Positions 2,060 to 60,488 of a DNA stretch of 64,000 nt are shown piece after piece (position 1 is the stretch's first letter; every line of letters starts with the position of its first letter). The stretch is from IMG/VR virus record IMGVR_UViG_3300021400_000347, positions 32,001 through 96,000 of that record; one strand, written 5' to 3'. The notes below the pieces were generated by a model, which made no database searches, was not told where the DNA came from, and saw nothing but the letters and a program-made list of their open reading frames with translations. This stretch comes from a virus (lineage: Duplodnaviria > Caudoviricetes). Position numbers and translations under genes: made by a program.

Positions 2060-2920
2060 ATGAATAATCTAGATAAATTTTATACAAAACCAAATATTGC
2101 AAAGCAATGTTTTTGTTTTTTACAACAGTACTACCCTCATATATCTGAAGAATATTTTTTGGAGCCCTCCGCTGGTTCTGGAAATTTTTTGCCCTTTTTG
2201 ACAAAATATGATGCTTTTGATATTAAACCAGAAGGAAATAATATTAAACAAGCAGATTTTTTAACATTAGAATTACTTCGTAATGATTATATTACTATTG
2301 GTAATCCGCCTTTCGGGAAACGATCAAAATTAGCTATTGATTTCTTTAACCATGCGGCAAAATATAGTAAAATTATTGCTTTTATAGTCCCGGTTTCATT
2401 TATGAAATGGGGGGTACATAAAGAATTAGATTCTAATTTTAATTTGTTAGCATATATGTATTTACCAGAAAATAGCTTTACAGATAATGGTAAAGATTTT
2501 TCTGTACGATGTGTATTTCAAATTTGGACGAGAGAAAATATTCCAAATAATTTACGTATTTTAAAATCGCCACCAATTAAACATAAAGATTTTAATATAT
2601 GGCAATATAATGCTACTCCGCAGGCTATGAAATACATAGATGAAAATTGGAAATATGCTATTTATAGACAAGGATATAAAGACTATCATCATTTGTTTAC
2701 ATAGAATGAATATGATACTGTGAAAGAACAAATGAAACAAAATATACAATTTTTTTTCATTGAACCGCTATGTGATAGAGCAGAGAAATTCGTCCATGAG
2801 GCTGATTTTGAGCAGCTTGCTTCTAGAAATACTTCTACTCCAGGGTTTGGAAAAGCGGATTTTGTTTCTTATTATTTACAATGGTTAGAAGAATCAAATA
2901 ATAATAAACAAAAATATTGA
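2060..2920 (+). CDS. Amino (N6-adenine-type) DNA methyltransferase, one in-frame TAG (2702-2704)
   Basis: DKFYT, motif I LEPSAGSGNF and motif IV GNPPFG. ORFs 2060-2704 and 2720-2920 are in frame across a single TAG. Confidence 0.85.
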
Positions 2921-2945
2921 CAATAATCAAAATTCATGATATAAT
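2917..2945 (+). promoter_or_regulatory. sigma-A/sigma-70 promoter
   Basis: TTGACA-17 bp-TATAAT with extended TG. AAGGAGG RBS follows. Confidence 0.85.
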
Positions 2946-2973
2946 ATATTTATGAAAAGGAGGATGATAACCA

Positions 2974-5352: not shown

Positions 5353-5363
5353 GGTAAAGTAAA

Positions 5364-5726
5364 ATGAATCAGTATAAAGAACTTTTCGCGCAGATCTGTA
5401 AGACTACTCGCTCCCTCGCGGAGCAAGTAGCAGATTATGACACCACCAATCACGATGAAAAAGGTGCCAACGCTGCGCTAGTAATGCGAGATGATTTTGA
5501 TCATCTAGCAGAGAAAATAACTAATAATGAACAGCTTGATAAAAATGATTATGTCAAGCTACTACTTGGGAGTATGGTTGTGTCCAACAACCTCCAAGAT
5601 AGAAAGGATATGCTAGAAAAAGCGTTAAACAATTATAAGATTGATGTCATTCCTAAGCTTGAACGAGTAGTGAATGAAAGTACCGATCAGACTCTAAAAG
5701 AGTTGGTTGATGAATTGTTTAACTAA
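5364..5726 (+). CDS. Hypothetical helical protein
   Basis: 120-aa ORF, GAGGT RBS, TAA stop. Confidence 0.7.
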   Translation: MNQYKELFAQICKTTRSLAEQVADYDTTNHDEKGANAALVMRDDFDHLAEKITNNEQLDKNDYVKLLLGSMVVSNNLQDRKDMLEKALNNYKIDVIPKLERVVNESTDQTLKELVDELFN

Positions 5727-5730
5727 ATAT

Positions 5731-5869
5731 TTGACTTTTGTCGAAAAATAGTATATAATTCTTACAGAAGGTGAGAGAGATAGCCTTCTAAAATATCGAG
5801 CCTATTTTATGAAATATAGGAAAAAGTAATATTGAAATATTTGACAATTGAATAAAAATTTGGTATAAT
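5731..5869 (+). promoter_or_regulatory. Two tandem sigma-A promoters
   Basis: TTGACT-17-TATAAT (5731-5759) and TTGACA-17-TATAAT (5841-5869). Confidence 0.8.
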
Positions 5870-5943
5870 AAAGCTATAAAGTGGAACGGGAAAAACCCAA
5901 CCATTTTAAATAAAATAACAACTAAAACACACAAAAAAGGAGA

Positions 5944-6312
5944 TTGATTACTATGACACAGAACAGCGAACTAGTACTAAACTATCTAAAGAAGAATTAT
6001 GGTCAGGAATTCAGTAAGAAGGAGATTGCCGATGCAGTTGGTATTTCCGTTCCCGCCGTTACCGGTAGCATGAATGGCCTACTCAAGCGCAATTTTGCTA
6101 CTACTACTCGTGAGGAGACTGTTGAGATTGCTCCTGCCACCGAGACCCGCAAGGCTCAGACCAAGGTCGTAAAGTATCACACCCTAACTGAGGCTGGCCT
6201 AGCTTATGACCCCGTTGCTGAGGCCGCAGAGAAGGAGGCCGCTAAGGCTGCTGAGCGTGAGCGCAAGGCCGCTGAGAAGGCTGCTGCTAAGGCCGCGAAG
6301 GAGAACGCCTAA
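5944..6312 (+). CDS. Winged-HTH DNA-binding protein with Ala/Lys/Glu-rich tail
   Basis: FSKKEIADAVGISVPAVTGSMNGLLKR HTH, LTEAG wing end, AAEKAAAKAAK tail, AAGGAG RBS. Confidence 0.75.
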   Translation: MITMTQNSELVLNYLKKNYGQEFSKKEIADAVGISVPAVTGSMNGLLKRNFATTTREETVEIAPATETRKAQTKVVKYHTLTEAGLAYDPVAEAAEKEAAKAAERERKAAEKAAAKAAKENA

Positions 6313-6324
6313 TAGGAGCGCTAC

Positions 6325-6358
6325 GCGGGAGGCTCCATGAGCCCCCGCTTTTTCTTTC
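6325..6358 (+). terminator. Rho-independent terminator
   Basis: GCGGGaGGCTC-cat-GAGCCCCCGC hairpin followed by a T-run. Confidence 0.65.
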
Positions 6359-6387
6359 TTGACAATTGTTAAAAAATAAAGTATAGT
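6359..6387 (+). promoter_or_regulatory. sigma-A promoter
   Basis: TTGACA-17-TATAGT. Confidence 0.75.
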
Positions 6388-6402
6388 AAAAGAAAAAAGA
6401 GG

Positions 6403-7296
6403 TTGAAAGTTATGAAAGCAATTACTACACAAGCACTAAATATTATTGAAGTTAATGGAAAACTATTAAATGCAACTGTCGCAGAAGGCACTCTTAAGGA
6501 TGGTCGCGCCTATAAGCGCGCGAATGCCACCGTTCGTGTAACCCAGACTTATGGCGGACAGGAAGAGACTAGTGAGATTCCAGTAAGTATGTTCGCCGCG
6601 CAGTACACTCAGGCTAACAAGCCTAACCCTGGTTATGAGCAGATTGAGAAGCTCGCAACTCTACCCACCGCGCAGAATGTTGGCATTAATGATGCCGCAT
6701 CAGTTCGTTTCTCTCGGGCCTCTATTCGCGAGAATAACTTCGTTTCCAAGAGCGGTCAGCTTATTAATGGCTGGCAGATTAATGGCAACTTTGTAAATTC
6801 CCCCCTCGCTAATAGCTGCGCTACTTTTGAGGTCCAGCTCTTCATTATGGATATGCACGATGAGATGGACCGTGAGGGCGATCCGACTGGTCGTCTTGTG
6901 ATTAAGGGCGGCCTTGTACAGTATGGCGGTAAGCTAGATGTACTAGAGTTCATCGTCGAAAATCCTGACGCAGTAAATTACATTAGCCGGAACTGGAATG
7001 TTAATGATACTGTAAACGCGCGCGGTCGTATTCGGTTCACTTCTAAGGAGGAGTCCGAGGGCGGCACTGGTAGTTGGGGTGAGCATATTCCTACTACAAC
7101 TACTCGTCTAGTCCGTGAGCTTATCATTACTGAGGGTAGTGATGAGGGACTAGAGGAAGAGTTCGCATATGATCCTGCCGATATTAAGAAGGCATTTAAT
7201 GTCCGTAAGGCCGCTATTGAGCAGATGCAGGTTAATGCAACTGCAGCACCGGCCGCGAAGGCTCAGCCCACCGCTTCAAAGTATAGTTGGGAGTAA
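6403..7296 (+). CDS. Putative single-stranded DNA-binding protein (tandem OB-fold-like)
   Basis: Beta-rich 297 aa, position in the replication module next to a Sak4-like ATPase, flexible tail ending YSWE. Confidence 0.6.
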   Translation: MKVMKAITTQALNIIEVNGKLLNATVAEGTLKDGRAYKRANATVRVTQTYGGQEETSEIPVSMFAAQYTQANKPNPGYEQIEKLATLPTAQNVGINDAASVRFSRASIRENNFVSKSGQLINGWQINGNFVNSPLANSCATFEVQLFIMDMHDEMDREGDPTGRLVIKGGLVQYGGKLDVLEFIVENPDAVNYISRNWNVNDTVNARGRIRFTSKEESEGGTGSWGEHIPTTTTRLVRELIITEGSDEGLEEEFAYDPADIKKAFNVRKAAIEQMQVNATAAPAAKAQPTASKYSWE

Positions 7297-7330
7297 TCCC
7301 AACTTACTTTTTTCAGGAGGTTGAGTAAGA

Positions 7331-8326
7331 ATGGCAGATATTAATATTTTTGAACTAGAGCCTTCTAAGATTAGCAGAGATTTGAAAGGTAAGTTCCTTA
7401 TGATTTATGGTGAGCCAAAGGTTGGTAAGTCTACTTTTGGTTCATAGCTCCCTAGAGCGCTATTTCTTAATTTCGAGCAAGGCACAAATGCCTTGGCAGG
7501 TATTCGCGGAGTACCAATTCTCCGTTGGTCAGATTTTAAGAAAGTCCTCGCGCAGCTAAGGAAGCCGCAAGGCAAGGAAATGTATGATAGTATCGTAGTT
7601 GATACAGTTTCTATTGCATGGCAGCTTTGCGAGAAGTACATCTGCCAGCGTGAAGGAGTAGAATCCATTCGCGATGTTCCTTGGGGACAAGGATGGGGTA
7701 TGCTAAGAAATGAGTTTAGCGAATGCTGGCGTGAGATTACGTTACTTGGGTTTGGTATCTTATTCATTGCCCATAGCAAGGAGAAGCCAACTGAGATGCG
7801 CGATGAGGATGGAAATACTATCACAGCGCTAGCCCCTGATCTTCCAAATCAGTGCTACACAATTATTAATAGCATCGTAGATATTATTGGTTATGTTCAG
7901 GTTCAAATGAACCCGGACGGAACCACAGAGCGCTACTTGTATACACGCGCAACACCAACAGTGTTCGCTGGTAGTAGATATCAATATCTTGCTCCAAAGA
8001 TTAAGTTTGGTTATCAAGAATTAGTAGATGCTATTGGTGACGCAATTGATAGCGCAGTAATTAAGGATGGCGCAGAAGTCACCGATCATACTGAATTCGC
8101 GCAGATTAAGGACCGCCCATTCCAAGAGATTATGGCGGATGCGAAGAATATCTGGGTGAGCTATCTAGAACAAGCTACTACCGAAGAGGAAAAGGAACAG
8201 CGTTTGAATATTATGAAGGACATAGTAAAGAAAGTTTTCGGTTCAGAGACTTTCAAGCTAAGTCAGGCTGTTCCATCTCAGGCAGACCTTCTAGAGCTGT
8301 TTATTACCGAGATGAAAGAGTTATAA
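7331..8326 (+). CDS. Sak4-like/AAA_24 P-loop ATPase, one in-frame TAG (7445-7447)
   Basis: ATG after AGGAGG. Walker A YGEPKVGKST lies upstream of the TAG, and Walker B IVVDT and FIAHS lie downstream. Confidence 0.85.
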
Positions 8327-8408: not shown

Positions 8409-8942
8409 GTGGCAACAATGACGAAAAGTAGAACGTGTTTTGGATGTAAAGAAACATTTAATAGTAGTTCATTGGTTCAATATGCGTCTCCCAATTCTAC
8501 AGTAATGCATTGGTATTGTCCAAAATGTTTACAAGAGAAAACGGAGCGAGATAGATTTAGCAGCGTAGTCTGTAATATCTTTGGCCTTAAAGCACCGGGC
8601 CCGCGCATTTGGACAGAAAGAAAAAGACTGATTGATACATATGGATATACTGATGATCAACTAATTAATTGCCTAGAGTATCTATACCAGATAAAGGGTT
8701 TGAAAAAATTATCTGAATCTTTATGTTTAATTAATCCAAAGTCTATGTCTGAGATGTATGCCTATAAGCAGCGTCAATAGAATGAAAATAAACGGCCAGA
8801 AAATATGGCTAGAAATATTACTAACGCCGCGGCAAAAACTGAAATTAAAAATTATTTAGTGTCTGTATTTGAAAGAAATAGAGAGAAAGTCAAACAATTA
8901 AATCCTGACGATTGGTGGGATGACAATGACACTGATAGATAA
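8409..8942 (+). CDS. Zn-binding replication-associated protein, one TAG (8778-8780)
   Basis: CFGC...CPKC. Reading through TAG reaches TAA at 8940, overlapping the helicase start. Confidence 0.7.
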
Positions 8943-10533
8943 AGGCACATATCGTCAAATTATCGGAAGTTTAATGCGTAATACATTCCTGCTTGTACAA
9001 TATGACGATATCGAGCCCTCTGATTTTGGCGAGCGGTGCGCGCAAACTGCCTTTATCGCTATTAAAAACCTTTATCAAGCGGGCGCGCAGCAGCTAACCG
9101 CATCAGAGGTTGAGCAAGAAATAGAGAAGCACGAACGTAGTTATTTATACTATGTTGAAAATAATGGGCGAGAATTTCTAACAACTTGTTATGAATTAGC
9201 TAACCCAAGTAATTTTGAAACATATTATAATCAATTAAAGAAATGTTCTCTTCTGCGCGAGCTTCAAAGAGAGCATTATGATATTAGCGAGTTCTTTATT
9301 GATGATAAAGATGTAGTTAACCCGCTAGAAGCAGCGAAAGTTCAAGAGCATTGTGAACAGTCAAGTCTTGAAGATATTCTAGATAGTATTGAATCAAAAT
9401 ATTCAATCATTCGTAATAAGTTTTTACATGGAGGCAAGTCACAAGGAGACCCCTCGGAGAAGATTAATGAACTTATTGAACGACTTAAGGAAACGCCTAA
9501 TGTAGGTGAGCCACTAGAGGGGAAACTATTTAATGCTGCCTGCCGCGGGGCCCGAGTTGGATGCTTTTATCTTAAATCTAGTTCTAGTGGTTCTGGTAAA
9601 ACAAGAACATCAGTTTTTGATGCTTGTAAGTTAACATTTCCAATTAAATGGAGTCATACTATGCGAGACTTCATTATGGAAACGCCAATTAATAATGAAG
9701 ATGTAATGCGCGATCCAGTAAAGACTTTGTTTATTGTTACAGAGATGGATAAAGAAGAACTCCAAACAATTATGCTAGCATATCTATCAGGTGTGCCAGA
9801 AGATAGGATTTTAACTGGTTCATATCTTGACGATGAGTATGAAAGAGTATTGTTTGCCGCGTAGATTATTAAAGATTATCACGATAACTTCATTATAGAA
9901 GAAATTAGTGAACCTAATTTGGTAAATGTGACTGCGACAATTAAAAGATATGCTACAGTGGAAAATGTTAAGTATGTCTTTTTTGATTATATTCATAGTA
10001 CAGCAAGTATGATGAGTGAATTTGCGAAGACAGGTCTGCGTGAGGATGTAGTACTCATGCTAATGGCTAATCAGCTAAAGCAGTTAGCAAAAGATTATGG
10101 ATTGTTCATTTTCTCAGCCACGCAGGTAAATGCTTCTGCTATGACAGAAGATGATGGTTTTAAAAATGAGGCCAGTATCAGAGGAGCAAAAAGTATAGCT
10201 GATAAGGCAGATATGGCATTAATTATGACAAAAGTGACACAGAAAACTTTAAACGCGGTCATGCCAGCTTTTAAACAAGCGGTCAACGAAGGAACTTTAA
10301 ATCCTAGTATATTAGCAACTCCGCCAACCCACGTATTAGACATTTATAAAATGCGTCGTGGACGTTATAAAAATGTCCGTATATGGATTAATTTAAACTT
10401 AGGAAACGGAGAACGTACCGATCTCTTTATGACTGGCGCAGATAATCTTCCTCTAGGGGAGCCAATAGATATGTATACTGGATATTATGAGAGACGCTTA
10501 ACGAATTGGAGGCAGCAGTTATGTTTGACTTAA
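8920..10533 (+). CDS. dnaB: DnaB-like replicative helicase, one in-frame TAG (9862-9864)
   Basis: Walker A SSGSGKT, FIVTEM, Walker B VFFDYIH, ATQVN and IADKAD. The motifs are split across the TAG. Confidence 0.92.
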
Positions 10534-18458: not shown

Positions 18459-18661
18459 CAGTAGATGAAATCATTATAAAACACGAATAGCTATCTAAGC
18501 AATTAAAGGTTGCTGCGTCTACGATGGCGTTAAGTGATGATGTTAAAACAATTTTTGCTAAAATAAAGGATCTACAAGAGCAATGCCCACATTTTAGCGC
18601 AAAACATAATTTTGTATAGATAGACGATAAATGCCCTTATTGCGGCAAGAAATTGGAGTGA
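18455..18661 (+). CDS. Small Zn-ribbon protein (2 TAG)
   Basis: 68 aa with CPH...CPYCG. ATGA overlap with the upstream gene. Confidence 0.65.
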
Positions 18662-18666: not shown

Positions 18667-18882
18667 ATGGTAACGTTATATACAAGTGATACTTGTGGAG
18701 TATGTAAGGCTATGAAAATGAAGATGGCTATGAAGAATATTCCATATGAAAATAAAACAGACATTGATTACTTAATGGACAAGGGCATTTAGAGATTACC
18801 TGTGCTTCAGCTTGAAGATGGCACGCTAATTGATTCTCCTACCGAAATCAATGCTTGGATTAAATCACAGCCGGAGGAGTAA
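18667..18882 (+). CDS. nrdH: Glutaredoxin/NrdH-like redoxin (1 TAG at 18790)
   Basis: MVTLYTSDTCGVCK...GI(Q)RLPVL, immediately upstream of nrdD. Confidence 0.8.
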
Positions 18883-18886
18883 GAAA

Positions 18887-24694: not shown

Positions 24695-24738
24695 AAAAAT
24701 AAGTGCCCCTCCCGTAATGGGAGGGGCTTATTTTTTTA
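24694..24738. terminator. Bidirectional terminator between convergent modules
   Basis: AAAAAAATAAG-tGCCCCTCCC-gtaat-GGGAGGGGC-TTATTTTTTT. Confidence 0.85.
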
Positions 24739-43600: not shown

Positions 43601-46150
43601 TTTTCCAACTGTTTTTAAAATATTAGTAAAAAAGTCATAAACGCCTTTTAAAGCATCTTCAATATGAAAACTTAAATACAGCTATGACCAAGCATTTTTT
43701 AATTGCTATGTTTTAGTCTCTAAAGAATCCATTGTTTTTGCTACTTGTACGATGCTGGCATTTTCAGAGTTGTTAGCAGTATCCATAGCTCTTGATAGCT
43801 CTTCATAGTTAGATACCAAAGCAATAAAACGAGATTGCTGTCTGTTACCAGCCATAACTGTAGCGATATAACGCTATGTATTTTTATCTAATGTATTCCA
43901 TTTCTATGCCAACTCCATAATGACGTCATCAAAATTACGGAATTGACCAGACGCATCTTTAATAGAAATACCAACTGACTTTAATGCTTCATCAGTTTTA
44001 TTATAAGATACTTCTTCTCCTTCAACATTCATCAATGAATCAGGAGAGGCTTTCATTTCACCATATCTTGAAATAATAGACTTCAACGCGCTACCAATGT
44101 TCTATGCAGACTCTCGTGTGGTTTGCTCCATAACGCTGATAAATGCAGATGTACTCTGTAGAGTCATGCCTACAGAAGCAGCAGACGAAGCTGTTTTTTC
44201 CATAGCGTTAGCGATTTCAGCAGAGCTTACAGCAAACTTTGCTGCCAAAGCACTATATGTGTCCGTGACTTGCTGTGCGTCTGTCATCTCAATCTTAAAC
44301 GCACGCACAGCTACTGTCATAGCATTAGCGGCTGATGAATAATCAATACCAGCAATCTTTGCCATCTTTAAAGTCTCTGCAGTCAGTGACATTACCTATG
44401 CAGTTTGTAGACCTTGCTGATAGAAAATCTATGATACTGTATATACATCTTTAGTAGCAACACCGTACTACTAAGCCATGTTTGTATATTCGCCAATTTT
44501 ATCCCATAAATCAGATTGAGACATATTAGTAACTACGGCGATAGCTGTAATAGTCTTATCCAATTCTTTTACTTCGCCAATCATATTACGAATAGCGCTG
44601 GTAGCTTTATTAATCAAGGCATAGGCACCAAACCATCTTTGAACAAAACCAGACATGCTATTTAATGTCTGAGTCTACTTGCTCATACCTTGTAATTCAT
44701 TTTTAGCTTTATTAGCATCCTTTTCAGTCTCTTCTAGATTTTTATTTAATTGCTCTACCTAATTAACACCAATTGACTATACTTCCTATTGAATAGGCTG
44801 AGCAGCATTAGCCAACTAGCGCTTCTAATCGTTTAAAGACTGCTACGTTGTAGTAATCTCTTGCTGATGAGAGCTAGTCATCGTAGCAAACTGAGCTGAC
44901 GCGCTTCTTACGGTTTCACGTTTTTCCTTCGCTTTTTCTAGCGATCCAGATATCTCTGTAGCATTTTCAGAAGCCTCTTCAATTTTACTTGCTAAACTAG
45001 CTTGCCCTTCTTCAGCAGCTTTTTTAGCTCTTTCATAAATCTACTTAATAATTTCTGCAAGCTTATCGAGATCTCCGCTAGAATAAGCAGTAGTTATTTC
45101 ATCTAACTCTTTCTTTGTTGCTTCAGGAGAAATTAGCTCCATTAATCTATTATATGTTCGCTCAGTATCTCCTAAAATAAAATTAGACATCTACCGTGCG
45201 GAAGTATTTCGATTAAATCCTAAAGCGTCGCCTAAAAGCTTACTTTTATTTAAATGTAAACTACGCCCTGTCTTTCCAGTAGCGATAGAGAAAATTTCTG
45301 TAATCTATTGCTCAAAATCAGAAGCTAACTATCCTTTATCATCTAAAGTAAAGGCAGTTCTAATTCTATTCTTTAGATCTTCCGCAGCCTGCTATAAAGC
45401 AGGATTATCTCCAAGCCCTTTAGTTGCCTCAGTAATATTCTAAATTAAAGTATCGGCAACCTGCTGCGCGCGCTCCTCTGATGGCTTTAAACCTTCTAAT
45501 AAACCATCTAAGCCTCCGCCTTTTTCAACAATAGCAGGTGTTTTCATCTCACTTTGCTGTTGTTGTAAATCAGCGAGCGTCTACTAAGCTTGGCGTAATT
45601 TCTCTTCATATCCCTGAACCTCATTAGTCGCACTCTGGAACATATTTCCAAGTTTTGTTCCAGCCGCGGAAACACTGAGTGTTTGAATATTTAATCCTAA
45701 ACTTTCTAGCGTAGAAGAAAATTCAGCAAAATCACCCTTAGATAGTAGATCAGATAGTTTCATACCTTTGAGCTAAGTCAAATGTTGCTGAGTAGCTTCA
45801 ATAGATGCCTATAGCTAATCTGTCTATTGACGTATACTATCTAAATTAATATCTTTTATTGAAACGCCACTAAGAGTTTGACCAATACTTACTCCTAAGC
45901 TGTCAATTTTCTCCAGCGCGGTCATAAATTTCTAAAGTTCACCTTCAGAATAAAAGCTAGGTGTGCTGTCTTTACTCATAGACGCTACTTTACGCTTATA
46001 TTCTTCTAGCATTCTGCCTAAAGATTTACCAATAGAACTACTCGGGTCAATATTCCCCATAGCCTTCTAAAAATCTTTTATGCTATTCTACCAACCAGTT
46101 ATTCGCGCATTAATGTCCATAGTAATAGAGTTTCCACTTGAACCACTCAT
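31682..46150 (-). CDS. Tape measure protein, ~4822 aa, dense with TAG
   Basis: Twelve ORF-track fragments are all in frame with the ATG at 46150. TMP core motifs (TTRESA(Q)NIGSALKSIISRY, AGNRQQSRFIALV), hydrophobic Gly/Ala segment near 42.4 kb, GELGPE. Not every codon was checked for TAA/TGA. Confidence 0.85.
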
Positions 46151-46183
46151 GATTACCACCTCTCCATTTACTCATTTTACCTA

Positions 46184-46221
46184 TAAAAAAAAGGGCCATT
46201 TCCTGTTTAAGGAAATGGCTC
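46184..46221 (-). terminator. Rho-independent terminator upstream of tape measure gene
   Basis: GAGCCATTTCCT-loop-AGGAAATGGCCC followed by T8 on the minus strand. Confidence 0.7.
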
Positions 46222-47170
46222 AAAAGTCCTCGTCTTCAACCTAGTCAAGACGAGTGATCTCCAAAATCATATCTCTCTTCCCAGTTTCATTAACTGGTAA
46301 TCCAAGAATATTAAACACAGATACCGTAGGATTAGCCTTTTCCCCCAAGCGCAAGTTAATATCGCTCAAAATTCTAACTTTTGGCATATACAACAAATTA
46401 ATGTAATTCTTGCCATCGTTCTCATCCTTGGAGTAGAACTTACCCTCAAGGGTGAATAATCCATTAAATCTATCGCGCGAAAGCGTGTATACTAACGGAG
46501 CTTCGGCTCCCTAACGGCTTTCTTTGCTATATTTATAGTAGTAATCTGCTACGCAATATTCATAATTATCTTCTAATAGCGAAGTTAAATTTTTATCATT
46601 ATATAATACAAGTAATGTCTCTGTCTCATCATGCGCGTTAGTTACAAATTTGCCATATAACTTAACCTAGATATTATCACGCGCGAAAGCCAAAAGAAAG
46701 ACCTTGTACTATGGAAGCCTAATTTCTGGCTAATGAGATAGCTAAATAAAATTAAAATATTCTTCCGGTTCATTCTTGCTCTCTGTGTAATCCCTTAAGG
46801 TACACATTGACTTCTAAATAATTAGCTATTCATGATGTGGAAGTAATAAATAATCATCTTCCTTCGCTGTCTCACAGTGAGAGACGGCGTTCGCGCTTAA
46901 TAAAATACTCATCCCTACTGATGACATAACTCCTTCCTATAAAGTGAAAGTAACATCATCGCGGCTGTCCCAGACAACACGAGGCCGGTTTTCCCAACCT
47001 CCGCGCGCGGAAACCAATGAATTTCTCTCATTAAGCGTAGACATACTTACATTCTCAAAATATAAAATAGGCTCTCCTGCTTCCACTCGCCGCGAACCAA
47101 ACCACATATCGGTTCGCGCGCGAAGGGTAACCTGCGAAAGTTCTTTTAATCCAAAATACTAATTAAGCAT
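46220..47170 (-). CDS. Second tail-tube-like protein (paralogue), at least 8 TAG; absent from ORF track
   Basis: FGLKELSQV...LYFENVSMST...ARGGWENRPRVVWD aligns by eye with YGIKEVANV...LFLDTLKVST...ATGGWGNPKLVSWD of the upstream gene. Confidence 0.75.
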
Positions 47171-47232: not shown

Positions 47233-48210
47233 TTATAGTGAGCCAGAACCTACGGAACCGTGGTCATCCTCACTAGTGCTGCCGCTGCTGCTAGCAATAG
47301 CATAACGGACTAGCTTCATCATTTCATTCTCGCCGCGCTCATTAGTGCCGCGTAGAACGTTTAGAGTCATCTCGAAGGTTGAAGGATCGCCCTCAGCCTC
47401 TAGAGTGATGGTTACCTCGCTGGTTACCTTGGCCTTATTAATTACGAACTGGAAGGGCTCGTCCTTACCAGTCTCAGCAGAACGCATGAATGTATCGCCT
47501 ACTACCTTGTAAGTGCCAGGGAAGGTATCAGGAGAAATAGTTACTTCAATAGCAGTCTCAGAACCAGTCTCGTTTTCAATAACCTCTTCCCAGAAAATAC
47601 GAACATGGTCGCCAGCCTTGGTCTCTACTGCGGCTGGAGAACTAGAATTTTGAGAATCCATACCAATTAGAGCAGGATTTACGAAATTAATTTTCTTAGT
47701 ACCATCTAGAGTTACGTCTGCATTGCTATTCTTCTCAAAAGTTAACTGAGTGCGAGCACCGGTAGTTAAATTAATGAGACGAATAGGATGACCCTTCTTA
47801 GCGACTGGATGTAATTCTACACCAGTTAAATGGTCCTTTGGTAGAGGTAGAAGACCATTAGCGTCACATACAACTTCCTCAGTATGACGAACAATTACAG
47901 GCTCCTTAGCACTAGCCTTATGAATAGCGCCACCAAGCATAAACCGTAGAGACTCGAGAGAAATTAGAGCGTCCTCTAGAGTGATGGTAATCTCCTTACC
48001 ATAGTCCCAAGATACTAGCTTAGGATTGCCCCAACCACCAGTAGCGTCAGTGGTTTCAGCAGTAGTTTCAATAGTAGATACCTTTAGAGTATCAAGGAAT
48101 AGCACGATGTCGCCCTTGTACACACCAGCCTTTAGATCGTCGTCTAGAGCCTCAAAATATACGTTGGCAACCTCTTTAATGCCATATTTATCAAAAATAT
48201 TTACAGCCAT
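47233..48210 (-). CDS. Major tail tube protein
   Basis: Position before the TMP, AAGGAGGT RBS, high-expression codon usage, ITLEAEGDPSTF motif, no TAG. Confidence 0.75.
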   Translation of the reverse strand: MAVNIFDKYGIKEVANVYFEALDDDLKAGVYKGDIVLFLDTLKVSTIETTAETTDATGGWGNPKLVSWDYGKEITITLEDALISLESLRFMLGGAIHKASAKEPVIVRHTEEVVCDANGLLPLPKDHLTGVELHPVAKKGHPIRLINLTTGARTQLTFEKNSNADVTLDGTKKINFVNPALIGMDSQNSSSPAAVETKAGDHVRIFWEEVIENETGSETAIEVTISPDTFPGTYKVVGDTFMRSAETGKDEPFQFVINKAKVTSEVTITLEAEGDPSTFEMTLNVLRGTNERGENEMMKLVRYAIASSSGSTSEDDHGSVGSGSL

Positions 48211-49588: not shown

Positions 49589-50839
49589 TTATGTCCATAG
49601 AGAACGGATTTCAATTTCTTTTTCAATGATTTGTCCATTTACTGATGCTTGTAAAATAAACGTACTAGACTTATTACGCTTCTTAACAGTAACCTTAGCT
49701 GAATTATCTTCTTTATTAACCTCTAAAACAAGGTACTTATCATCTTCAGGATCTGTATTTGGAGCAATATTCCATGTATATGAAGCGCCTAACTCATAAT
49801 CTTTTAAAGTATAAATTGCATACCAACCCTCACGAATATAATCGTTACCAACAATCACTGGTGTACGTGCTATATTTGCGCCTTGTTCTACAATAGTACA
49901 AGTAAAAGAATTAGTTTCACTATTAATTATTGCGGTAGGATAATTCTTAAAATTCACAGTCACTTTAACAGTGCCTGGATGTTTAGCAATTAATCCGCCA
50001 TCAGTAGTATCTAAATACCACGTATCAGCAATATCATAATTAAACTCATAAGAAGCATCGCGCTCAAATACTACATTATTCTTCATGACAATAATGTCTG
50101 GAGTAAAAGTCATACCAACTGCAATTTCAGTTGGGGCTTTAATAATAAATGAATATTGCGCTTCTTTATCAGTATCAGCAAGTGGTTCATCTAAATCATC
50201 ATAAATGAAATTTACTTTATTCTCTGTCAAAGACATATAAATAGTTCCTGGCACACTAGAAAAATCTGCTTCAATCATATTCCAAGACTCATTCTATACA
50301 ATAAAATTTGTAGAACGATCTACTGGATAATACGGCATAACAATTTCTGCATATTTATTAGGTTGAGGAGTAATTAAGTTATGCCATGTTCTATAATTAC
50401 CCTTAACTTTACTATCTACTGAACTGACGAAATAGGCCCACGACTATTGCCTATGTCCCTATCCATCAATCCACTTAAGCAAGTAATTACACCTAACAAT
50501 GAAAAATGTTCTATAAGTGCCATTTACTTTCTTTTCTTCTTGCAGTAGCAACCATTTCTCGATTGAGCCGTCATCAATCGTCCAATTCATAATATCTCCG
50601 ACTTTTAAAGGAATATCGTTAGCTACATTTAAATACATATCTTTACGATATTCTTTATCAACTTTTGTTAGGATAATTCCATCAAAATGTATTCCTCGTT
50701 CAACAGATAACTCTCGAACGGTATGAGGCGATTCTGCCATCCATTTATAAAAAGAGCGAATCCCGCCCTCGCGAATACGTTCAGCGGTCGTTTCACCCAG
50801 ATGGTTCACGCGCGCGAAAAATACATCACGATAACTCAT
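49589..50839 (-). CDS. Head-closure-like protein with C-terminal Ig-like domains, TAG-containing
   Basis: ORFs 50459-50860 and 49589-50278 are in frame. LKVGD...RCNYLLKWID and GLIAKHPGTVKVTV. Confidence 0.65.
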
Positions 50840-52055: not shown

Positions 52056-53168
52056 TTAACCGTTTAAAGCTGCCTTCTCAGCTGCGGTCAATAGATTTTG
52101 GTTATAACTATACCAAGGATTGCCATCCTGAGCAGTACCAGCAAGGCTGCCATTGTAATAGATACCCCAATAATTAGGAGTGCCAACTACAGCAATACCA
52201 ACCTTTAGATAACCCTGTAGAACGATGCTATTATCGCCCTCATGGTCATCCCAAGTACGGAAGTAAGGAGAGCCCTCAAAGCCTAGCTTTACAATCTTGC
52301 TATTTTGGCCAGTAGGCATAACATAAGCAAAGCAAGGATTCATAACAGTCTTCTCATTCTTCTCGTCAGTATAGGACTGTGGTAGTACTACTACAGGTAC
52401 GCCACGGAAACGACCGATATAGCCGCGCTCGCGCACCTCTAGCATATCCTGATCAGAAATCTTGACGGTGCTATTATAAACAATAGCATTTACCATCTCA
52501 GCAGCAAACTCGGGAGTGCAATAGATAACAGGATCGCCATAAGCGCGCACGGTGTTGCAAAGCTTTACCATAGCGGCGGGATCAAATGTATTAGACACAA
52601 CCTTGTTAGCAGCTGGACGACCAGCCTGATTCCAAGTATTTAGTAGGGCTTCCTGAACCATCTCAAAGATACGGTCAGTAATACCTTGCTGAATGATCTC
52701 ATAGATGTCAGTAATGCTCTCTAGACCATCTAGATAACGCTCAAAGTCAACGTAACCGGCGCCACCAATAGCCATTGGATAAACGTCAAAACGGTCACGG
52801 TCTAGACGGAAAGTCTCATAGTTGCCAGACTCGGTAGCACGAGTTACAAACTGGCGGCCACGTTGCTTACCACGGGTTACATGGAACTCAAGGCGATCGC
52901 CTTGGCCAACGCGGATAATTTCGCAGAACATATCTAGAGCATTCTCTAGGCTGCGAGGAAGAACCTCTTCGAGATTCTGGGTTAGTAGTTCAAATAGGTC
53001 AATCTTGTTGCGCTCAAACTTATAGCGATTTAGACGACCCTTGTCATCACATAGAAGCTTTACTAGCTCATCATGTAGAGCAGCTTCATAATCGTAATCG
53101 GCGGCTGCGAACTCAGCAGGAACCTTGCGGCCGAATACACCATTCATTAAAATCTGTAGATTATTCAT
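52056..53168 (-). CDS. Major capsid protein
   Basis: 370 aa after scaffold and decoration genes, GYIGRFRGVPVVVLP motif, strong codon bias, GGGAGGTG RBS, no TAG. Confidence 0.85.
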   Translation of the reverse strand: MNNLQILMNGVFGRKVPAEFAAADYDYEAALHDELVKLLCDDKGRLNRYKFERNKIDLFELLTQNLEEVLPRSLENALDMFCEIIRVGQGDRLEFHVTRGKQRGRQFVTRATESGNYETFRLDRDRFDVYPMAIGGAGYVDFERYLDGLESITDIYEIIQQGITDRIFEMVQEALLNTWNQAGRPAANKVVSNTFDPAAMVKLCNTVRAYGDPVIYCTPEFAAEMVNAIVYNSTVKISDQDMLEVRERGYIGRFRGVPVVVLPQSYTDEKNEKTVMNPCFAYVMPTGQNSKIVKLGFEGSPYFRTWDDHEGDNSIVLQGYLKVGIAVVGTPNYWGIYYNGSLAGTAQDGNPWYSYNQNLLTAAEKAALNG

Positions 53169-53183
53169 AGTTCGCACCTCCCA

Positions 53184-53758: not shown

Positions 53759-54991
53759 TTAATTTTTGCGATATTTTTTAATTAGTAAAGCGAATTGAGA
53801 CTCTTCAGGCTCTTGTAGTGGGACTTTCGCCACAGCAGGAGCTTCGTCAGCCATCTTCTTATGCGCAAAAACAATGGCTAATTTGCCTTCCAATTCTTCA
53901 TAAGACAAGTCGTTTACCTTGTCCTTAATTACATTAATTTCTTCCGCGTCAAGAATTTTTTCATACTTTTCTACTAGATTATTCTTTCTATCTAGTTCAG
54001 CCTTGGCAGCGGCTGCTTCATATGTTGCCACAGAAGCTTTTAGAGATTCATTAAGCGTTTTTAGATTATTAACTTCATTTGAAAGTTCGTCGCGAGAATT
54101 TACAACTTCCTCATAAAGAGCCTTTAGGTCAGTATAGTCCTTATTTAGCTTGTCAAAAGCAACCTGTAGCTCATTTACCTCGGGCTCAGCTACTTCTTCC
54201 TCTTCTACAGTTGGCTCTTCCGCGGAGAACTCCTCAGCAGGAGCTACCTCTGGCTCTTCAACCACGGGCTCTACCTCTGGCTCTTCTACAGCAGCAAATT
54301 CCTCAACTACAGTTTCAATTTCTTTATTCTCATCCATCGCTTTCTCCCCTCCTTCTTCAAGTTTCGCAACTCTTGATTTTAGATCAAGCAGTAAGCTTTC
54401 AAATTTTTCAAACTAACTATTATATTGTTCATCATTCTTAGAAAAGAATGAGGATACCGAAAAACATGGCTCATGCGCGCCAATTATACAGAAGCCAAGC
54501 ATATTAGCCTTTGTATAAACGAAATAATAATCATTATTAATTTCCGCCCAATCGCCTTCAATTGAATTAGGGTCTAATTCCATACTCTAATTCTAACCAC
54601 GAATATTACGAGCTTCCTCATAATAATCGGTAAATAATACGACAGAGAATGTCGCATAATCTCTTACAACACCATCGGTATCAGTCATTGGCTCCCATCC
54701 AAGGAAACTTTCTACATAACCATAACCATTGGCTAAAGTGGGCCCAGTATGTGAAGCCCAGGTTTTAGTTTCTGGGTCAAAAAAACCAACAACTGGAGTG
54801 CTACCATTAGTAGCACTTTGAATTAATTGCTCTGCCACGGCATCTGTAATATATGAACCATTCCTGTTCGCATATTTAGTAAATACCGCAACCTTTAGCC
54901 TGTTTAAATTAGGTTCGGATTCTGAAATCACTTGAATAGGTGAATCAACAACTTGTACGTCAAAATAAACTGGTATTTTTCTCTCATCCAT
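53759..54991 (-). CDS. Prohead protease fused in frame to acidic scaffold (3 TAG in the protease part; internal start at 54337)
   Basis: ANRNGSYI, PVVG, HT, G(Q)N(Q)SMEL and HEPCF, continuing in frame into the Glu-rich coiled-coil ORF 53759-54337. Confidence 0.8.
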
Positions 54992-55002
54992 TGTTATTCA
55001 CC

Positions 55003-56523
55003 TCATTGCTCTGCGCTAATGTTTTGTTGCGTACTTTCTTGCTTCTGCGCGTCTGGCACTTCTGTGCGGCCACCCTACTCATTTGTAGTAGTAGTAGTAC
55101 TAGTATTTGTACTAGAGCTAGATCCGCCACCACCAAAGGCACTACCAGAAGTTGTATAGGAAGATTGTAGTGGTACCATCTTAACAGACATTTTAAGAAT
55201 ATCGTTCTCAAAATTCATTAAGCTAAGCTGATCGCGCTGCTTCATACCCATCGCAACACCAGCATACATTTTAGAGTAGCCATATTGTGCTCCGCGGAAA
55301 TATAAGCCTTGTAATTCTTCTCTATTAAATACAGTAAGAGGAAGAATCTAAAAATCAAAGGTCAAACCAGCGCGCGAAAAACGCTCATTTATAAGATAGC
55401 AAATCCACGTTTCATATACGTTTAAATACGCATTCATTAATGCTTCGTCTTTTTTCATAGCCATAGCCAATGCTGCGCTGCCATCAGGATTGAATAGAAT
55501 GTGCGCCCGACCCATAGCATCCCAAGCATTGTTCTTATACTTGGTAATGCGGTCGCTAGACTGGGTTGCCGCGCTTGAATCCTACACGTTTTCTAGAGTC
55601 GTATCTCCAAAAGTAGTAAGCACATCAACAGTGTCAGTCTCGGATAGCATTTGCGCGATAGAACTATGTATGTCTGCTGTTTCAGTTAAGTCAAAGACAA
55701 GCTCGCCATTACTATCAATAGGCATCTTTTGAATGAGCAACTTATGTAGCTCATTCTCGTCACGCTTCTCTTCGCGCGCAACGGCGTCCGCGAGTTTCTT
55801 CAATTGAGGAATACTGGCAATTAATAACGGCATTCCATCTCCAGCGAAACTGAAACTAACGCCCCCGCTACTCGCGGGTAGTTCCACCCAGCAGCTAGTT
55901 TTCTTATTGCCTCGTATCCATGCTCGCCACGCCTTTTGAACCTCTTTAGGAAAAGTCGTAATGGCCTCTTCGCGCGCATTGTCGTCTACGATTTGTAGGA
56001 AGTAATTTAAATCAAATTCCAATATGTCTAAATTATGGAAGTCTTTAAATCTAACTCTACAATATTGCTGCGGCAAATCTTGAACAGTGACCAAATCACC
56101 ATCTTCGCGCAGGACACCGTAGTAAATACCATTTTTTAGCCATTCTGTTGTAATATGCGCCAAGGTGTTAGGCAAATCCATATTATCAATAAAAGTACAA
56201 GCGCGATAAAAAGCTTTTAGAATCTATTTATCCGAGCCTTTGCCTTCCTAATAAAGTGGAATCACTAGCGTTTCATAAAGTGGTAGATGCGCGAGGAAGT
56301 CAATGTTATTTCTATACTCACTATTAGTGCGATAATAATATCGCGATAATTCTCTTAAAGAAAGCAAGTCACCAGAGCGAATTATCTCTTCAATCTCTTC
56401 TATAGAAAAATCATGAGCGACAGCATCAGTCTATCTATATCCCCAACGATAATAAGATGATTGTGCTTTTATCGGGGTGCGTTTTATCTTCTCTCTAAAA
56501 GTTTGAAAGTCTTTTCCTTCCAT
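55003..56523 (-). CDS. Portal protein, ~506 aa, TAG-containing
   Basis: Lies between TerL and the protease. Fragments 55582-56181 and 55075-55269 are in frame. PLQSSYT motif, TGA stop. Confidence 0.78.
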
Positions 56524-56529
56524 AGCATA

Positions 56530-58296
56530 TCACCCCCTAGTATGTGGACTGAAAAAGATAAAATCTTTTATATTTTTTTTCTTATTACGCTTCTACATTT
56601 TATCTTCATAATACTTCACTCTGTAAAGTCCATATTCAAGAGCAGAGAAGCGGTCTTTTTCAATTGAGCGCGAAATACGTTCAATTTTAAACTAATTCTA
56701 AACGCCAGTAGCCTTAAGCCGCAAATTGTTTAGCTCGTCAATAAGCCTAGATGTCATCTCGTATGGCAATAGGAATACTCTTCTATCATACAAAGACATT
56801 TTTTTGCCTTTATTTGTATTCATTAATTTGTCTTTTACTATCCGTTCATGTGCTAGAAATTCTACGCTTCCGTTATTAATTTGTGTGAAAAAATTTGAAT
56901 GAATAATATCTTCATTCTGCGCGCCCGCTTTTATATCATAAATAATTGCGTTAAATTGCGGACGAGGTTCTTCAGCTTCAGCCTTCATCTCAGGAGGTAA
57001 ATGATGGTCGTTATTAAAGACAAAATATGGTGGAAAAGTCTCACCAGTTTTTATATCTACAGACGCAACAGCCATAGCATCTAGCAAACCAATACCAGGG
57101 CCATTACCGTCAATAACAATCTCTCGAGGATTAAAAAGCTAAATTAATTTTTTCAAACGAGGCGCTTGTTCAGTTATATAATTCGCGCCGTGTATAATCT
57201 CAGTATACACTACCCTTTTCGCGCACATGTTCTACTGTGGCAAAACCTTGATAACCATAATAGCAGTGTTCGCTGAATAGCGTGCAACGTCCACTCCTAT
57301 TATATAATAGGTATTAGGATTAGTGGGATTCTCCTATGCTTTCCTCTCACATTTTAACAAAGTTCTTCTTTTATTTAATCGTTTAGAATCAAGCCAAGCA
57401 TCTTTGTTGTTACCAGACCAGATTGATAGAGATTCGCGCGCAAAGCTTTCCTCGCTTACGGTGTTGGAATAACGCTGGTCCATCAATGTAGCCTTATCTA
57501 GAAGTCCATAATGTAATGGTACTTCATATGATAGCCCCCAGCAGAAATACTCTTTCGGCCGCAGCACGGCATTTACTGCGCACTCAATGAGTTTACTATA
57601 CATAAAAACAGTACGTTCTGCGGCGGTAGTAATGAAAATTTGTGTACTTGATGGCTCCTCTGGATTTAAAGAACCATCTACTTCGTGACGTTTAATGTTC
57701 ATTTGCGGCCAAAGTACTTCATTGTATGATGTCTCATCAATTAGAGCGCACTCCTCCAGGATGGCTGCGTTCGCGCGCAAACCACGAGAAGTATCTTTAG
57801 AAACAACTGTAATTTGGCTGCCATTTTTAAACTTAAGCTCATAGTAGTTTGAACTAGACTTAATACCAGTTTTTCCGTCTTCTACTCGAGTAGCCAATTC
57901 TTTCCTAAGTAAAGGCCAATGGTTAAAGATTTCCTCGAACTTGGCTTCTGCGATTTTAATAACGGTTCCTTTAACGTCAGAGGCGAGCATTATAGTTGAG
58001 CCAGGCAGTAGGACTGCGCGCAGTACTGAAGCAAGGTATGCCGTGAATGATTTAGAGGTCGCGCGCGTGGCAGTCCAAAAGTGGTAGCGATAGCGCATAC
58101 AAGCGCGCAGCGCAATACGCTGATATGGAAGAAGATGAAAGTGCTTCGCGTCCGTGGTTGACTAAATTGTATCTAAGAATATATCTGGATACAGTATCCA
58201 CAAGTTCAAATATTTAGTAAATAGCTCTTCATTCGCGTCCAAAAACTCTCGAGTAAGAACGACGCCTTTTTCAATAGCAATCTCATTAGTCTCCAT
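56530..58296 (-). CDS. terL: Terminase large subunit, ~588 aa, TAG-containing
   Basis: LLPYQR, ATRATSKS, SRGLRANAAILEE, nuclease IGVDVAR, IDGNGPG and KDRFSA. Confidence 0.9.
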
Positions 58297-59221
58297 TTAA
58301 TTCACCTGCCAATTCGTCTTCGCCTTCGTACTGAATATCAGCAGTTTCATCAAACTCAACCTTCTCGTTCTCAATCTCTTCAAGACGCTCTGTCATATTG
58401 TAGCGTTCGCGCTTATCTTCAACCTGCTCCGCGAAGTTACCCTCATTAACAACCAGACGCTTCAAATAATTCTAAATATTCTCCATCATAAAGTCAATAG
58501 AATCTTTCGCTTCTGTATGCCATTTTGGATGCCAGCCCTTCTTCCCGTAGTAAACCATAAGCTCACCAACAGACTCGAAGTCGGCTGCGTTCTTTGCGCT
58601 CGTAGCCTCAAAGTGCGCGATTTTAATAATATTATCACGCGCGTCCATATCTTTCTTAATATCTTCGCCCGCGCGCAAACCCTTCTTAATGCGAAGCTCA
58701 ATTTCACAAAGGTCGCGCGCGTAGTGCTGTAAAATTGGAGTAGATACATTTTGTGTAGCAAGTATCTAATTATAGAAACTATCCAAGAAAAGCAATTCAT
58801 CATCTTTATACGCGGCTGACCACTCCTTACGGAGTCGGCGCATTTTTGCGTCCTAAATAGCTTTAATGTCCTCGTCAATCGTGCCCTATTCGCGCGCGAG
58901 ACGCCATCTTTCATTCTCGTCCGTCCACTAAAGTGAAGCATAGTGGTCGTTCGAGAGGAGGGAAAAGTAAGCAGTTAGCGTATGATCCTTATAGGTTGGA
59001 TATAACTATGTCCATTTATTCAAATCAAATGGTACATCAAGGTAGCGGCAAAGCCTATCAACTTCGCCCAAATTGCTCTGATCAACCATCTGCTCCAAGC
59101 AATTAGTACAAATAAGTGAAAGATGATTAGGGAAAAATTTGGATGGTGTTCGCGCAAATTCATTCTCCGGCTTTTCCTGTCTACATCTCATGCATCTACG
59201 TTTCTTTATTTCTTCTGTCAT
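58286..59221 (-). CDS. Zn-finger protein upstream of TerL (possible small terminase), ~311 aa, TAG-containing
   Basis: CMRC...CTNC, GGAGG RBS, fragments join in frame, acidic C-terminus. Confidence 0.6.
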
Positions 59222-60488
59222 GAGTTGGCTAACCTCCTTCAATACGCCTATTGCGTTCGCATTCCTTACAGGAAGATGAGAATCCATCTTTACGGCCCTT
59301 ATTCAAACAAAAGAACAACTTATGGCGTGGAAGCTCGCGGCCGCAGGTGGCGCATTTTTTACACTCCTCTAATGGGGTTTCAATTAACAGGCGATGACGC
59401 TGCGCGGCGTATGCTATTTTTTCCGGGATTTCTTTGGCCAAAATTGTACATAGGTAGTTTTCGGTATACTTAATGCCATACTTGACTTGGAGGTTATGAA
59501 CAATTTCGCCGTATGGTATTCGCGCGAGCTTTAAGTCAAGAATGTAGTTACGCGCCTCGGACAGATTGGCCATCGCGCGATAGCGTTCAAAATCAAGCAG
59601 AAGTGTATACCCATACGTATCCAATTTTTCGTGAAGCTAATCATAAAGGCCATCAAACTAATTAATTAAATGCTTAATATGGTTGGGGTTCTCCCAGTCA
59701 AAAGTATGCGGCTGAACCATCCACTTGTATTGGGGTTCGCCATTTGGGCCTTCGCGCACCTCATAGTCCTCAATGTTGCGGGAAACGCGCGAAGTTAGCG
59801 AATGGGCAATTTTTTCCTCAAGTTCCGCGCGCGAAATCCAATAGAAGGAGTCGGCCGTCCAGTCAACGAATTGGGTTTTTGGATGGTCTGCGCCCGCGAA
59901 GTGCAATGTAGGTTTAAATATGTCTTTTAGGTAGTACTAATGGCGGCGCATATCAATTAATTGATGCTTGAGCTGATATAGGCGATAACTATCCTTAAGG
60001 AGGGGAGTGTGGTCATCGTAAGGTACCTTGCCCTCATTAACGGCCACGATATGCTCTACGCGCGCAATATCATCCCAGAGTTGCTACATGCCGGGAATGT
60101 CGCTGTCGCCCGGATCGATTAGTTCGCCCGTTTTCTTATTATACTTGGGCTTGTTGATAGTGGGCTTTGGGCGTTTGTATACGGAACGTTTATTTGCGGA
60201 TTGAAGCTCCCGTTCGTCCGTTGCGGGGTTCTCCAGTATTTCGTCTAGGGAAAGAAGTTTCTCGTCTGCGGTCTTAAATGAATTGTAGCGTTTATTGTCG
60301 TCCGTCATTTCGCCACGCTACTTTGCGTTCTTGCCTTCTTCGTCCTTCCCATATAAGATGTAGTTGGCCATTTGCTCAAGTTCTGTATTAGTTGGATTTT
60401 TATCCAATGTATCCAATATATCATAAATAGCTTGAACGCGGTCAACGTCACGTTCAATGCTATAGTCTAATGAATATGCTTTTTTCAT
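59160..60488 (-). CDS. First gene of morphogenesis operon: HTH-like + C-terminal Zn finger, ~442 aa, TAG-containing
   Basis: Three ORF-track fragments are in frame with the ATG at 60488 (GAGGTG RBS). MANYILYGKD and CATC...CKEC. Confidence 0.7.

Follow-up and report, generated by a model that had tools for sequence, protein, structure and literature searches.

In-frame TAG codons very probably read as glutamine, with graded use, in a large siphovirus that carries a long-arm tRNA(CUA)

How does a phage express genes whose reading frames are broken again and again by one stop codon, TAG, and by no other? The question is raised by a 64-kb stretch of phage DNA (hereafter "the window"), bases 32001 to 96000 of IMG/VR record IMGVR_UViG_3300021400_000347, a linear virus record of 132,916 bp with an estimated completeness of ~76% (CheckV). 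Plain coordinates below are window positions, and those marked "genome" or L001, a second label of this record, refer to the whole record. An initial annotation of the window had proposed genome-wide recoding of TAG to glutamine. The assignment to glutamine was upheld, and we put the probability that UAG is read as glutamine in this phage through a phage-borne tRNA at roughly 0.9. Uniform use of the recoded codon was not seen; TAG use is graded, and neither the capsid gene nor the genes for the largest replication enzymes contain it. The window probably covers the middle of the genome of a large siphovirus that infects Clostridia of the gut or rumen and has a complete size of ~175 kb. Its first 24,700 bases encode, on the plus strand, replication and nucleotide enzymes identified with Pfam (gyrase B and A, an AAA_24/Sak4-like ATPase, a DnaB-like helicase, a RecJ-like nuclease, DNA polymerase III alpha, NrdD, a dUTPase, a GIY-YIG nuclease, and RuvC). 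Positions 24,736 to 60,488 hold virion genes on the minus strand: TerL, portal, a protease/scaffold-like protein, an HK97-fold capsid protein, tube-like proteins, a 4825-amino-acid tape measure protein (TMP), and large distal tail proteins. Pfam is nearly silent on these late genes, and PHROGs profiles were required for the virion identities, together with the predicted fold in the case of the capsid. The sign of the GC skew flips at the same place as the gene strand.

Under the standard code (code 11), the window contains 62 open reading frames (ORFs) of at least 100 amino acids, the longest having 1304. Reading through TAG joins fragments into ORFs of 4825 amino acids (120 TAGs) and 1782 amino acids (40 TAGs), into NrdD (659 amino acids) and the helicase (537 amino acids) with one TAG each, and into others; in total, about 251 in-frame TAGs fall in about 22 credible genes between positions 2060 and 60,488. 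Coding density over the whole record, calculated as a greedy ORF cover, rises from 0.698 under code 11 to 0.910 with TAG recoded (code 15), while recoding TGA or TAA in its place gives 0.742 and 0.831, respectively. ORFs that appear on the opposite strand under TAG read-through, such as that at 5719-6432, were taken as artefacts of dropping a stop codon. Within the virion block, no in-frame TAA or TGA occurs, against 13 to 61 per 1000 codons out of frame; the corresponding values for TAG are 18.6 per 1000 codons in frame and 18.6 to 24.5 out of frame.

The gain in density, together with Pfam and PHROGs matches that span the fragments, bears out the earlier claim that conserved proteins are broken only by TAG. 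The individual sites named in the initial annotation were also placed correctly: TAG at 9862-9864 lies within the DnaB_C match of the helicase, TAG at 7445-7447 within the AAA_24 match, and TAG at 19565-19567 within the NRDD match, and PHROGs agree with the labels given to TerL, the portal, and TMP. Among the genes that had been described as invisible under code 11, RuvC and the GIY-YIG gene were recovered with Pfam and the tube paralogue with phrog_2729, but the putative NrdH at 18446-18661 had no Pfam match at an E value of 0.001 or below, and this label was not confirmed. That TAG is translated in this phage is virtually certain. Genes that look fragmented under code 11 could also be the product of damage, whether in a decaying prophage, in pseudogenes, or through assembly errors, a reading to which we would give next to no chance and which is already refuted: the frames are broken by TAG only and never by TAA or TGA, 45 related contigs from other samples display the same pattern, partly at the same columns, and the TAG columns track glutamine in a record that contains a matching tRNA(CUA).

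The statement that every reconstructed gene ends in TAA or TGA is true by construction. An independent test is offered by G008, a complete standard-code relative of 184,104 bp in which TAG closes 24 out of 234 ORFs. Of the orthologues, 36 share their end position between the two genomes, and in the present phage every one of them terminates with TAA or TGA, including two that terminate with TAG in G008. Judged by these gene ends, UAG is never needed as a terminator here.

The amino acid encoded by TAG was approached through the relatives. With the capsid protein as query, IMG/VR yielded 80 related loci at 64 to 96% identity, of which 45 are recoded and 26 lack any in-frame TAG across more than 800 aligned codons. 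A near relative, on the contig of L006, has a capsid protein that is 96% identical. At 50 TAG columns of the present phage, the 26 TAG-free relatives carry glutamine in 440 of 821 cells; glutamine is the majority residue in 27 of these columns and glutamate in 6. Column-weighted log-likelihoods were -109 for Gln, -165 for Glu, -167 for Lys, -194 for Ser, -231 for Leu, and -245 for Tyr, so that Gln leads Glu, the next candidate, by 55 nats. As an internal control, the phage's own CAA/CAG columns were profiled by majority residue (Gln 0.58, Glu 0.10, Ala 0.06); the 44 TAG columns covered by at least five TAG-free relatives gave an equivalent profile (Gln 0.57, Glu 0.14, Thr 0.07), clearly unlike those of Glu, Lys, Ser, Leu, Tyr, and Trp columns. 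Genome-wide comparison with G008 alone, at 176 TAG columns, yielded Gln 60, Glu 17, and Lys 16.

Several TAG columns are invariant glutamine in every covering TAG-free relative (17 to 26 relatives). These include residue 314 of the portal protein (25 of 25), residues 135 and 193 of the protease-like protein, and residues 57 and 184 of a 442-amino-acid protein (17 of 17 and 18 of 18). Residue 135 of the protease-like gene (53759-54991) is the "N*SMEL" site that had been singled out as a glutamine position in the initial annotation, and the second such site, in the NrdD motif RDGM*SAFTN, corresponds to residue 246, which aligns to a Gln of Thermotoga maritima NrdD (PDB entries 4u3e and 4coi). 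Thus, the column likelihoods, the CAA/CAG control, the invariant columns, and the NrdD structures all agree with the expectation that TAG stands where Gln belongs, and the aligned residues are not random, Gln being favored over all other candidates.

Glutamate deserves separate consideration because some relatives do place TAG at Glu columns. In G010, a complete genome of 171,958 bp (loci L227 to L235; L084:10001-11065), TAG columns aligned with G008 are Glu in 121 cases, Asp in 24, and Gln in 18; this phage encodes a short tRNA(CUA) of 74 nucleotides at 50570-50643. Loci L034 and L052 likewise place TAG at Glu columns. For the phage of the window, the six Glu-majority columns would fit the same assignment, but its CAA/CAG profile itself contains 10% Glu, and neither the likelihoods nor the invariant columns favor Glu. 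We consider it very unlikely that TAG encodes an amino acid other than glutamine here, whether Glu or, as the shape of the tRNA described below might suggest, Ser, Leu, or Tyr.

The family apparently holds three codes side by side, as far as alignments can tell: code 11, TAG as Gln, and TAG as Glu. In the capsid-protein tree, recoded and non-recoded lineages are mixed, which requires at least seven changes, at least two of them forced by well-supported branches. The present phage falls within a five-member recoded clade, the sister group of which mostly uses the standard code. Consequently, a genetic code table has to be chosen genome by genome in this family.

No tRNA gene lies inside the window, in keeping with the earlier remark that no suppressor tRNA was seen there, but the rest of the record does contain one. 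ARAGORN predicts 22 tRNAs in the whole record, among them a single tRNA(CUA) of 90 nucleotides on the plus strand at genome 2469-2558 (L001), 29.4 kb upstream of the window start and between tRNA-Thr and tRNA-Pro in a tRNA array. It scores 57.4 bits with the Rfam tRNA model and has a four-pair D stem, a short D loop, A1:U72, G2:C71, G73, and an extra arm of 22 nucleotides that forms a five-pair hairpin with the loop CUGACA. Directly 3' of this gene lies a 504-amino-acid gene (L001:2723-4237), homologues of which (35 to 42% identity) adjoin tRNA(CUA) in three distantly related phage contigs (L106, L128, and L165). Elsewhere in the record, at L001:11121-11208, an 88-nucleotide tRNA with anticodon UAU (Ile, AUA) also has a long extra arm, with A73; its counterparts in G006, a recoded relative of the same clade, and in G008 measure 75 to 77 nucleotides.

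The tRNA(CUA) shares G73, G2:C71, G10, and the CUA anticodon with supE-type tRNA-Gln. It departs from that class I type in its extra arm (22 nucleotides instead of 4 to 5) and in its first acceptor pair (A1:U72 instead of U1:A72). The long arm, like that of Ser/Leu/Tyr-type tRNAs, and an anticodon stem-loop that differs from that of the phage tRNA-Leu(CAA) solely in the middle anticodon base speak for a class II suppressor of the supD, supP, or supF kind, inserting Ser, Leu, or Tyr. That candidate was rejected on the evidence of the TAG columns, which give these three residues the log-likelihoods listed above and include the Gln of a solved NrdD structure. The acceptor end, with its weak A1:U72 pair, is not Ser/Leu/Tyr-like either, and the D loop is short, unlike those of the Ser, Leu, and Tyr tRNAs of the same genome.

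Ten long-arm homologues of tRNA(CUA) were collected from IMG/VR, with compensatory changes in 16 of 21 base pairs. Position 1:72 is A.C in four of them, U:A in three, G.U in two, and A:U in one, never G:C, and G73 is present in eight. All 12 long-arm tRNA(CUA) collected, among them those of this phage, of phage phAss-1, and of G006 after splicing, have the motif Y-U-G-A-(A/C) in the region of the extra-arm loop, compared with only 1 of the 46 ordinary tRNAs of Ser/Leu/Tyr type that were taken from the same DNA. The motif can be read as CUG or UUG, the glutamine anticodon, followed by A37. The motif stays constant although the stems of the extra arm vary and covary, suggesting that the loop is under selection, and the design is kept from this phage to phAss-1 at a TerL identity of only 33%. 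It is conceivable, and in our estimate somewhat short of an even chance, that the molecule is a "two-headed" glutamine tRNA, the anticodon arm of which reads UAG, while the hairpin of the variable region displays CUG/UUG plus A and maintains Gln identity, so that the host synthetase for glutamine, for which U35 and G36 weigh heavily, would still charge a tRNA that reads a stop codon. In the literature that we searched, from which most subscription journals were outside coverage, neither a second anticodon-like arm nor a suppressor gene split by an intron was described.

A suppressor of the latter kind is found in G006 (179,585 bp, complete), the coding density of which increases from 0.677 to 0.911 with TAG recoded. 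ARAGORN in its default mode reports no tRNA(CUA) in this genome; with a lowered threshold and introns allowed, its output was swamped by false tRNAs, and two low-score tRNA(CUA) calls were discarded for want of Rfam support. The gene is split after U35, inside the anticodon, by an insert of 297 nucleotides (exons L213:1722-1755 and L213:2053-2109; G006:101722-102109), which matches an Rfam group I intron model with 34 bits (E value of 4e-6), below the gathering score of 50. The joined exons form a 91-nucleotide tRNA(CUA) with U1:A72 and G73. The insert is 75% identical to the intron in the tRNA-Leu(UAA) gene of the present phage (L001:7512-7875), 280 nucleotides inserted after U34, a gene that default ARAGORN also missed. 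A BLAST search with the suppressor tRNA matched the records of only 1 of 10 relatives and no GenBank phage record, partly because the suppressor gene of some relatives is split by an intron or is of another kind. Split genes may also partly explain why suppressor tRNAs were detected in only 40% of the TAG-recoded genomes of Borges et al. (10.1101/2021.08.26.457843).

How could such a tRNA be charged and used? RF-1, PCRF, and class Ic synthetase domains were absent from this record (~76% complete), and the RF-1 domain was absent from five relatives, three of them complete. The initial annotation had seen no release factor in the window; neither release factor 2 (RF2) nor a Gln-tRNA synthetase (GlnRS) gene is found in the remainder of the record. 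Since no synthetase or release factor of the phage was found, charging of the tRNA must fall to host enzymes, and the tRNA must contend with host release factor 1 (RF1). Weak evidence links the group to Acutalibacteraceae as hosts: the contig of one recoded relative was assigned to the bin of an Acutalibacteraceae genome, and genes for a true GlnRS (741 bits against a cut-off of 426) and for RF1 (523 bits) are present in that genome. The identity elements of GlnRS comprise the 1-72 and 3-70 pairs, G73, the 10-25 pair, U35, and G36, and an amber tRNA-Ser, itself a long-arm tRNA, was made glutamine-accepting by changes at pairs 1-72 and 3-70 (PMC9976931). A long arm is thus tolerated by GlnRS.

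In the mechanism that we propose, host GlnRS would load tRNA(CUA) with glutamine, perhaps aided by the extra arm; the amber anticodon lacks G36, and the spare CUG/UUG loop may compensate for it. The charged tRNA would then compete with host RF1 at UAG, so that full-length virion, nuclease, and lysis proteins might appear only after the tRNA has accumulated, and suppression would be incomplete, with the most abundant proteins avoiding TAG.

The distribution of TAG is informative in this respect. Its density is 5.4 per 1000 codons across the replication block, compared with 18.6 across the virion block, and in the latter 39% of the glutamine-type codons are TAG. The replication genes differ among themselves: those for the largest enzymes (gyrase B and A, polymerase III alpha, and the RecJ-like nuclease) have no TAG; NrdD, the helicase, and the Sak4-like ATPase have a single TAG each, and the codon is dense in the genes for the GIY-YIG nuclease (10), RuvC (7), and a 358-amino-acid unknown protein (5). 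In the late genes, TAG accounts for 33 to 44% of glutamine-type codons in TerL, portal, and TMP, and an endolysin-like ORF located beyond the window (genome 131011-132537) contains five TAGs. No TAG occurs in the capsid gene, for which P = 0.0006 given its 15 Gln codons. Its orthologues in the 45 recoded relatives contain 1 TAG versus 617 CAA/CAG, and in recoded relatives the tube-like protein (4 versus 257) and a 186-amino-acid head protein (2 versus 262) are similarly depleted. The concentration of recoding in late (structural and lysis) genes is a pattern shared with the published code 15 phages. If suppression is good but imperfect, as the graded use leads us to infer, the proteins needed in the highest copy numbers would avoid TAG.

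The same gradient could mean that TAG is a leaky stop with partial read-through and that attenuation of full-length yield is the selected function. The avoidance of TAG by the capsid gene and its neighbors would fit, as would the RF1 of the candidate host, the single suppressor gene found, and the lack of hits for a phage-encoded release factor or an inhibitor of RF1, both in this record and in three complete relatives. We nevertheless regard a leaky stop as unlikely, because a TMP of 4825 amino acids with 120 TAGs can be produced in useful yield only with near-complete read-through at each TAG, and because TAG supplies 39% of the Gln-type codons of the virion block. The difference from efficient translation as glutamine is one of degree only.

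Several points weigh against translation of UAG as glutamine by the phage tRNA. The residue actually inserted is deduced from evolution only. The body of the tRNA(CUA) is Ser/Leu/Tyr-like, with A1:U72 instead of the U1:A72 of bacterial tRNA-Gln, and the part played by the extra arm in charging is a tentative idea that we hold slightly less credible than its opposite. Half of the replication-block genes also carry a TAG, so that an early-to-late switch cannot be sharp. The host assignment depends on one binned contig, and further suppressor tRNAs or factors may be missing from a record that is ~76% complete.

Recoding of TAG to Gln in late genes, suppressor tRNAs encoded by phages, and closely related phages with the standard code have all been published, as the initial annotation recognized in referring to known code 15 gut phages. 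Borges et al. presented a model of late-gene recoding by TAG and reported RF2 in two TAG-recoded Agate phages (10.1101/2021.08.26.457843), Peters et al. (2022; PMC9523058) provided peptide proof of TAG as Gln in crAss-like phages, and NCBI taxonomy includes a "Caudoviricetes code 15 clade." The present phage resembles the Agate-type phages of cattle, pigs, and tortoise in the concentration of in-frame TAG as Gln in structural and lysis genes, in variable TAG use in replication genes, and in having a phage tRNA(CUA) and close standard-code relatives. It also shares with them a heavily recoded homing-endonuclease-type gene in the early region and a presumed standard-code Bacillota host. The Agate clade was compared by description only, with which size, habitat, and mixed codes fit. 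Unlike in the Agate phages, no RF2 gene was found here, and the paper of Borges et al. does not describe a long-arm suppressor.

A second point of comparison is phAss-1, a siphovirus of ~136 kb with a predicted Clostridia host (proposed genus Phassvirus; Babkin et al., 2023; PMC10607447; GenBank OQ749652). Both phages read TAG as Gln in TerL, portal, TMP, and other genes, the assignment being deduced in the present case, and both have a very long TMP (3149 amino acids in phAss-1) and a large tRNA array. The 91-nucleotide long-arm tRNA(CUA) of phAss-1 (A1:U72, G73, loop CUCUGAA) is homologous to that of the present phage; the variable arm is not mentioned in the phAss-1 paper (PMC10607447). phAss-1 has two additional short tRNA(CUA) genes, whereas only the long one was found here. 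Members of Phassvirus share ~80% or more genome-wide nucleotide identity, as seen among the three of them, and a phage with a TerL only 32.6% identical to that of phAss-1 is, by this measure, outside the genus. TerL identity to large standard-code siphoviruses of Bacillota is of the same order (31 to 37%). With E. coli supE, a tRNA-Gln with a CUA anticodon, the tRNA(CUA) of the phage has in common, beyond the anticodon and G73, a weak first acceptor pair and, as deduced here, the insertion of Gln, and with the Gln-accepting amber tRNA-Ser it has the long arm in common (PMC9976931). It differs from supE in that it is a natural phage gene and not a mutant, in its 22-nucleotide extra arm with a Gln anticodon in the loop, and in A1:U72 for U1:A72.

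The most interesting parts of this locus adjoin the main finding, namely the suppressor with a spare anticodon and the coexistence of three codes in one family. If the extra arm does maintain tRNA identity, it would represent a new route for genetic code change and a ready-made part for genetic code engineering. Graded recoding, with a TAG-free capsid gene beside a 4825-amino-acid protein with 120 TAGs, constrains models of suppression efficiency. In practical terms, pipelines that apply code 11 shred about one-third of the coding capacity of this phage and miss the terminase, the portal, the tape measure, and several nucleases.

The TAG-containing genes of the replication block, all on the plus strand, begin with an unknown protein of 286 amino acids (2060-2920; 1 TAG), an ORF only with read-through and without a Pfam match. 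The Sak4-like ATPase (7331-8326; 331 amino acids) matches AAA_24 across its TAG with an E value of 4e-47, and its TAG column is CAG in G008. The DnaB-like helicase (8920-10533) has its TAG at residue 315, inside a DnaB_C match covering residues 264 to 488. The 358-amino-acid unknown protein (17382-18458) again is an ORF only with read-through and has no Pfam match. The anaerobic ribonucleotide reductase NrdD (18830-20809) matches NRDD with an E value of 2e-89. The GIY-YIG nuclease gene (21363-22316; 317 amino acids), likewise an ORF only with read-through, has a Pfam GIY-YIG match with an E value of 8e-9, and the RuvC-like resolvase (23572-24318; 248 amino acids) has a RuvC match with an E value of 3e-5. 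Four of the seven TAG columns of the RuvC-like gene are CAA in G008.

On the minus strand, the large virion or tail protein of 1782 amino acids (24736-30084) is an ORF with read-through and has no Pfam or PHROG match, and the adjacent probable distal tail protein (30109-31674; 521 amino acids, 10 TAGs) has a weak Sipho_tail match in Pfam (E value of 0.0095). TMP (31682-46159), with no in-frame TAA or TGA, matches phrog_4211 (E value of 1e-46) and phrog_28 (E value of 2e-24), both of which are tail length tape measure families. A paralogue of the tube-like protein (46220-47170; 316 amino acids, 10 TAGs) matches phrog_2729 with an E value of 2e-10. The putative tail tube protein itself (47233-48210; 325 amino acids, no TAG) matches this virion structural protein family with an E value of 5e-49; its tube role is deduced, and a structure model with a mean predicted local distance difference test score of 41.9 was not used. 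The predicted fold of the major capsid protein (52056-53177; 373 amino acids) is that of an HK97-type capsid, with 330 PDB matches at an E value of 0.001 or below; sequence searches of the PDB with the capsid and tube proteins were empty or insignificant.

The protease or scaffold-like head protein (53759-54991; 410 amino acids; phrog_3313) has three TAGs, at 54593-54595, 54587-54589, and 54413-54415, and each of these columns is Gln in 24 to 26 of the 25 to 26 covering TAG-free relatives. The portal protein (55003-56523; 506 amino acids, 6 TAGs) matches phrog_2739 with an E value of 8e-62. TerL (56530-58296; 588 amino acids, 7 TAGs) matches phrog_2 with an E value of 2e-17 and two further PHROGs that cover fragments only; Gln is the majority residue at five of its seven TAG columns. 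The 442-amino-acid protein (59160-60488; 8 TAGs), with sigma-factor-like and endonuclease VII-like matches, belongs to phrog_5767 (E value of 6e-13). This gene and another recoded, PHROG-supported minus-strand gene at 58286-59287 overlap by 128 nucleotides in different frames when read from their first possible starts; the downstream gene probably begins at an internal start codon. Beyond them, positions 60,500 to 64,000 have a lower coding density, a G+C content of up to 0.46, and only short overlapping ORFs on both strands. Within the tRNA array, L001:9358-9455 matches the Rfam cow-rumen-3 RNA with 76.8 bits (gathering score of 86.7), which is consistent with a rumen origin.

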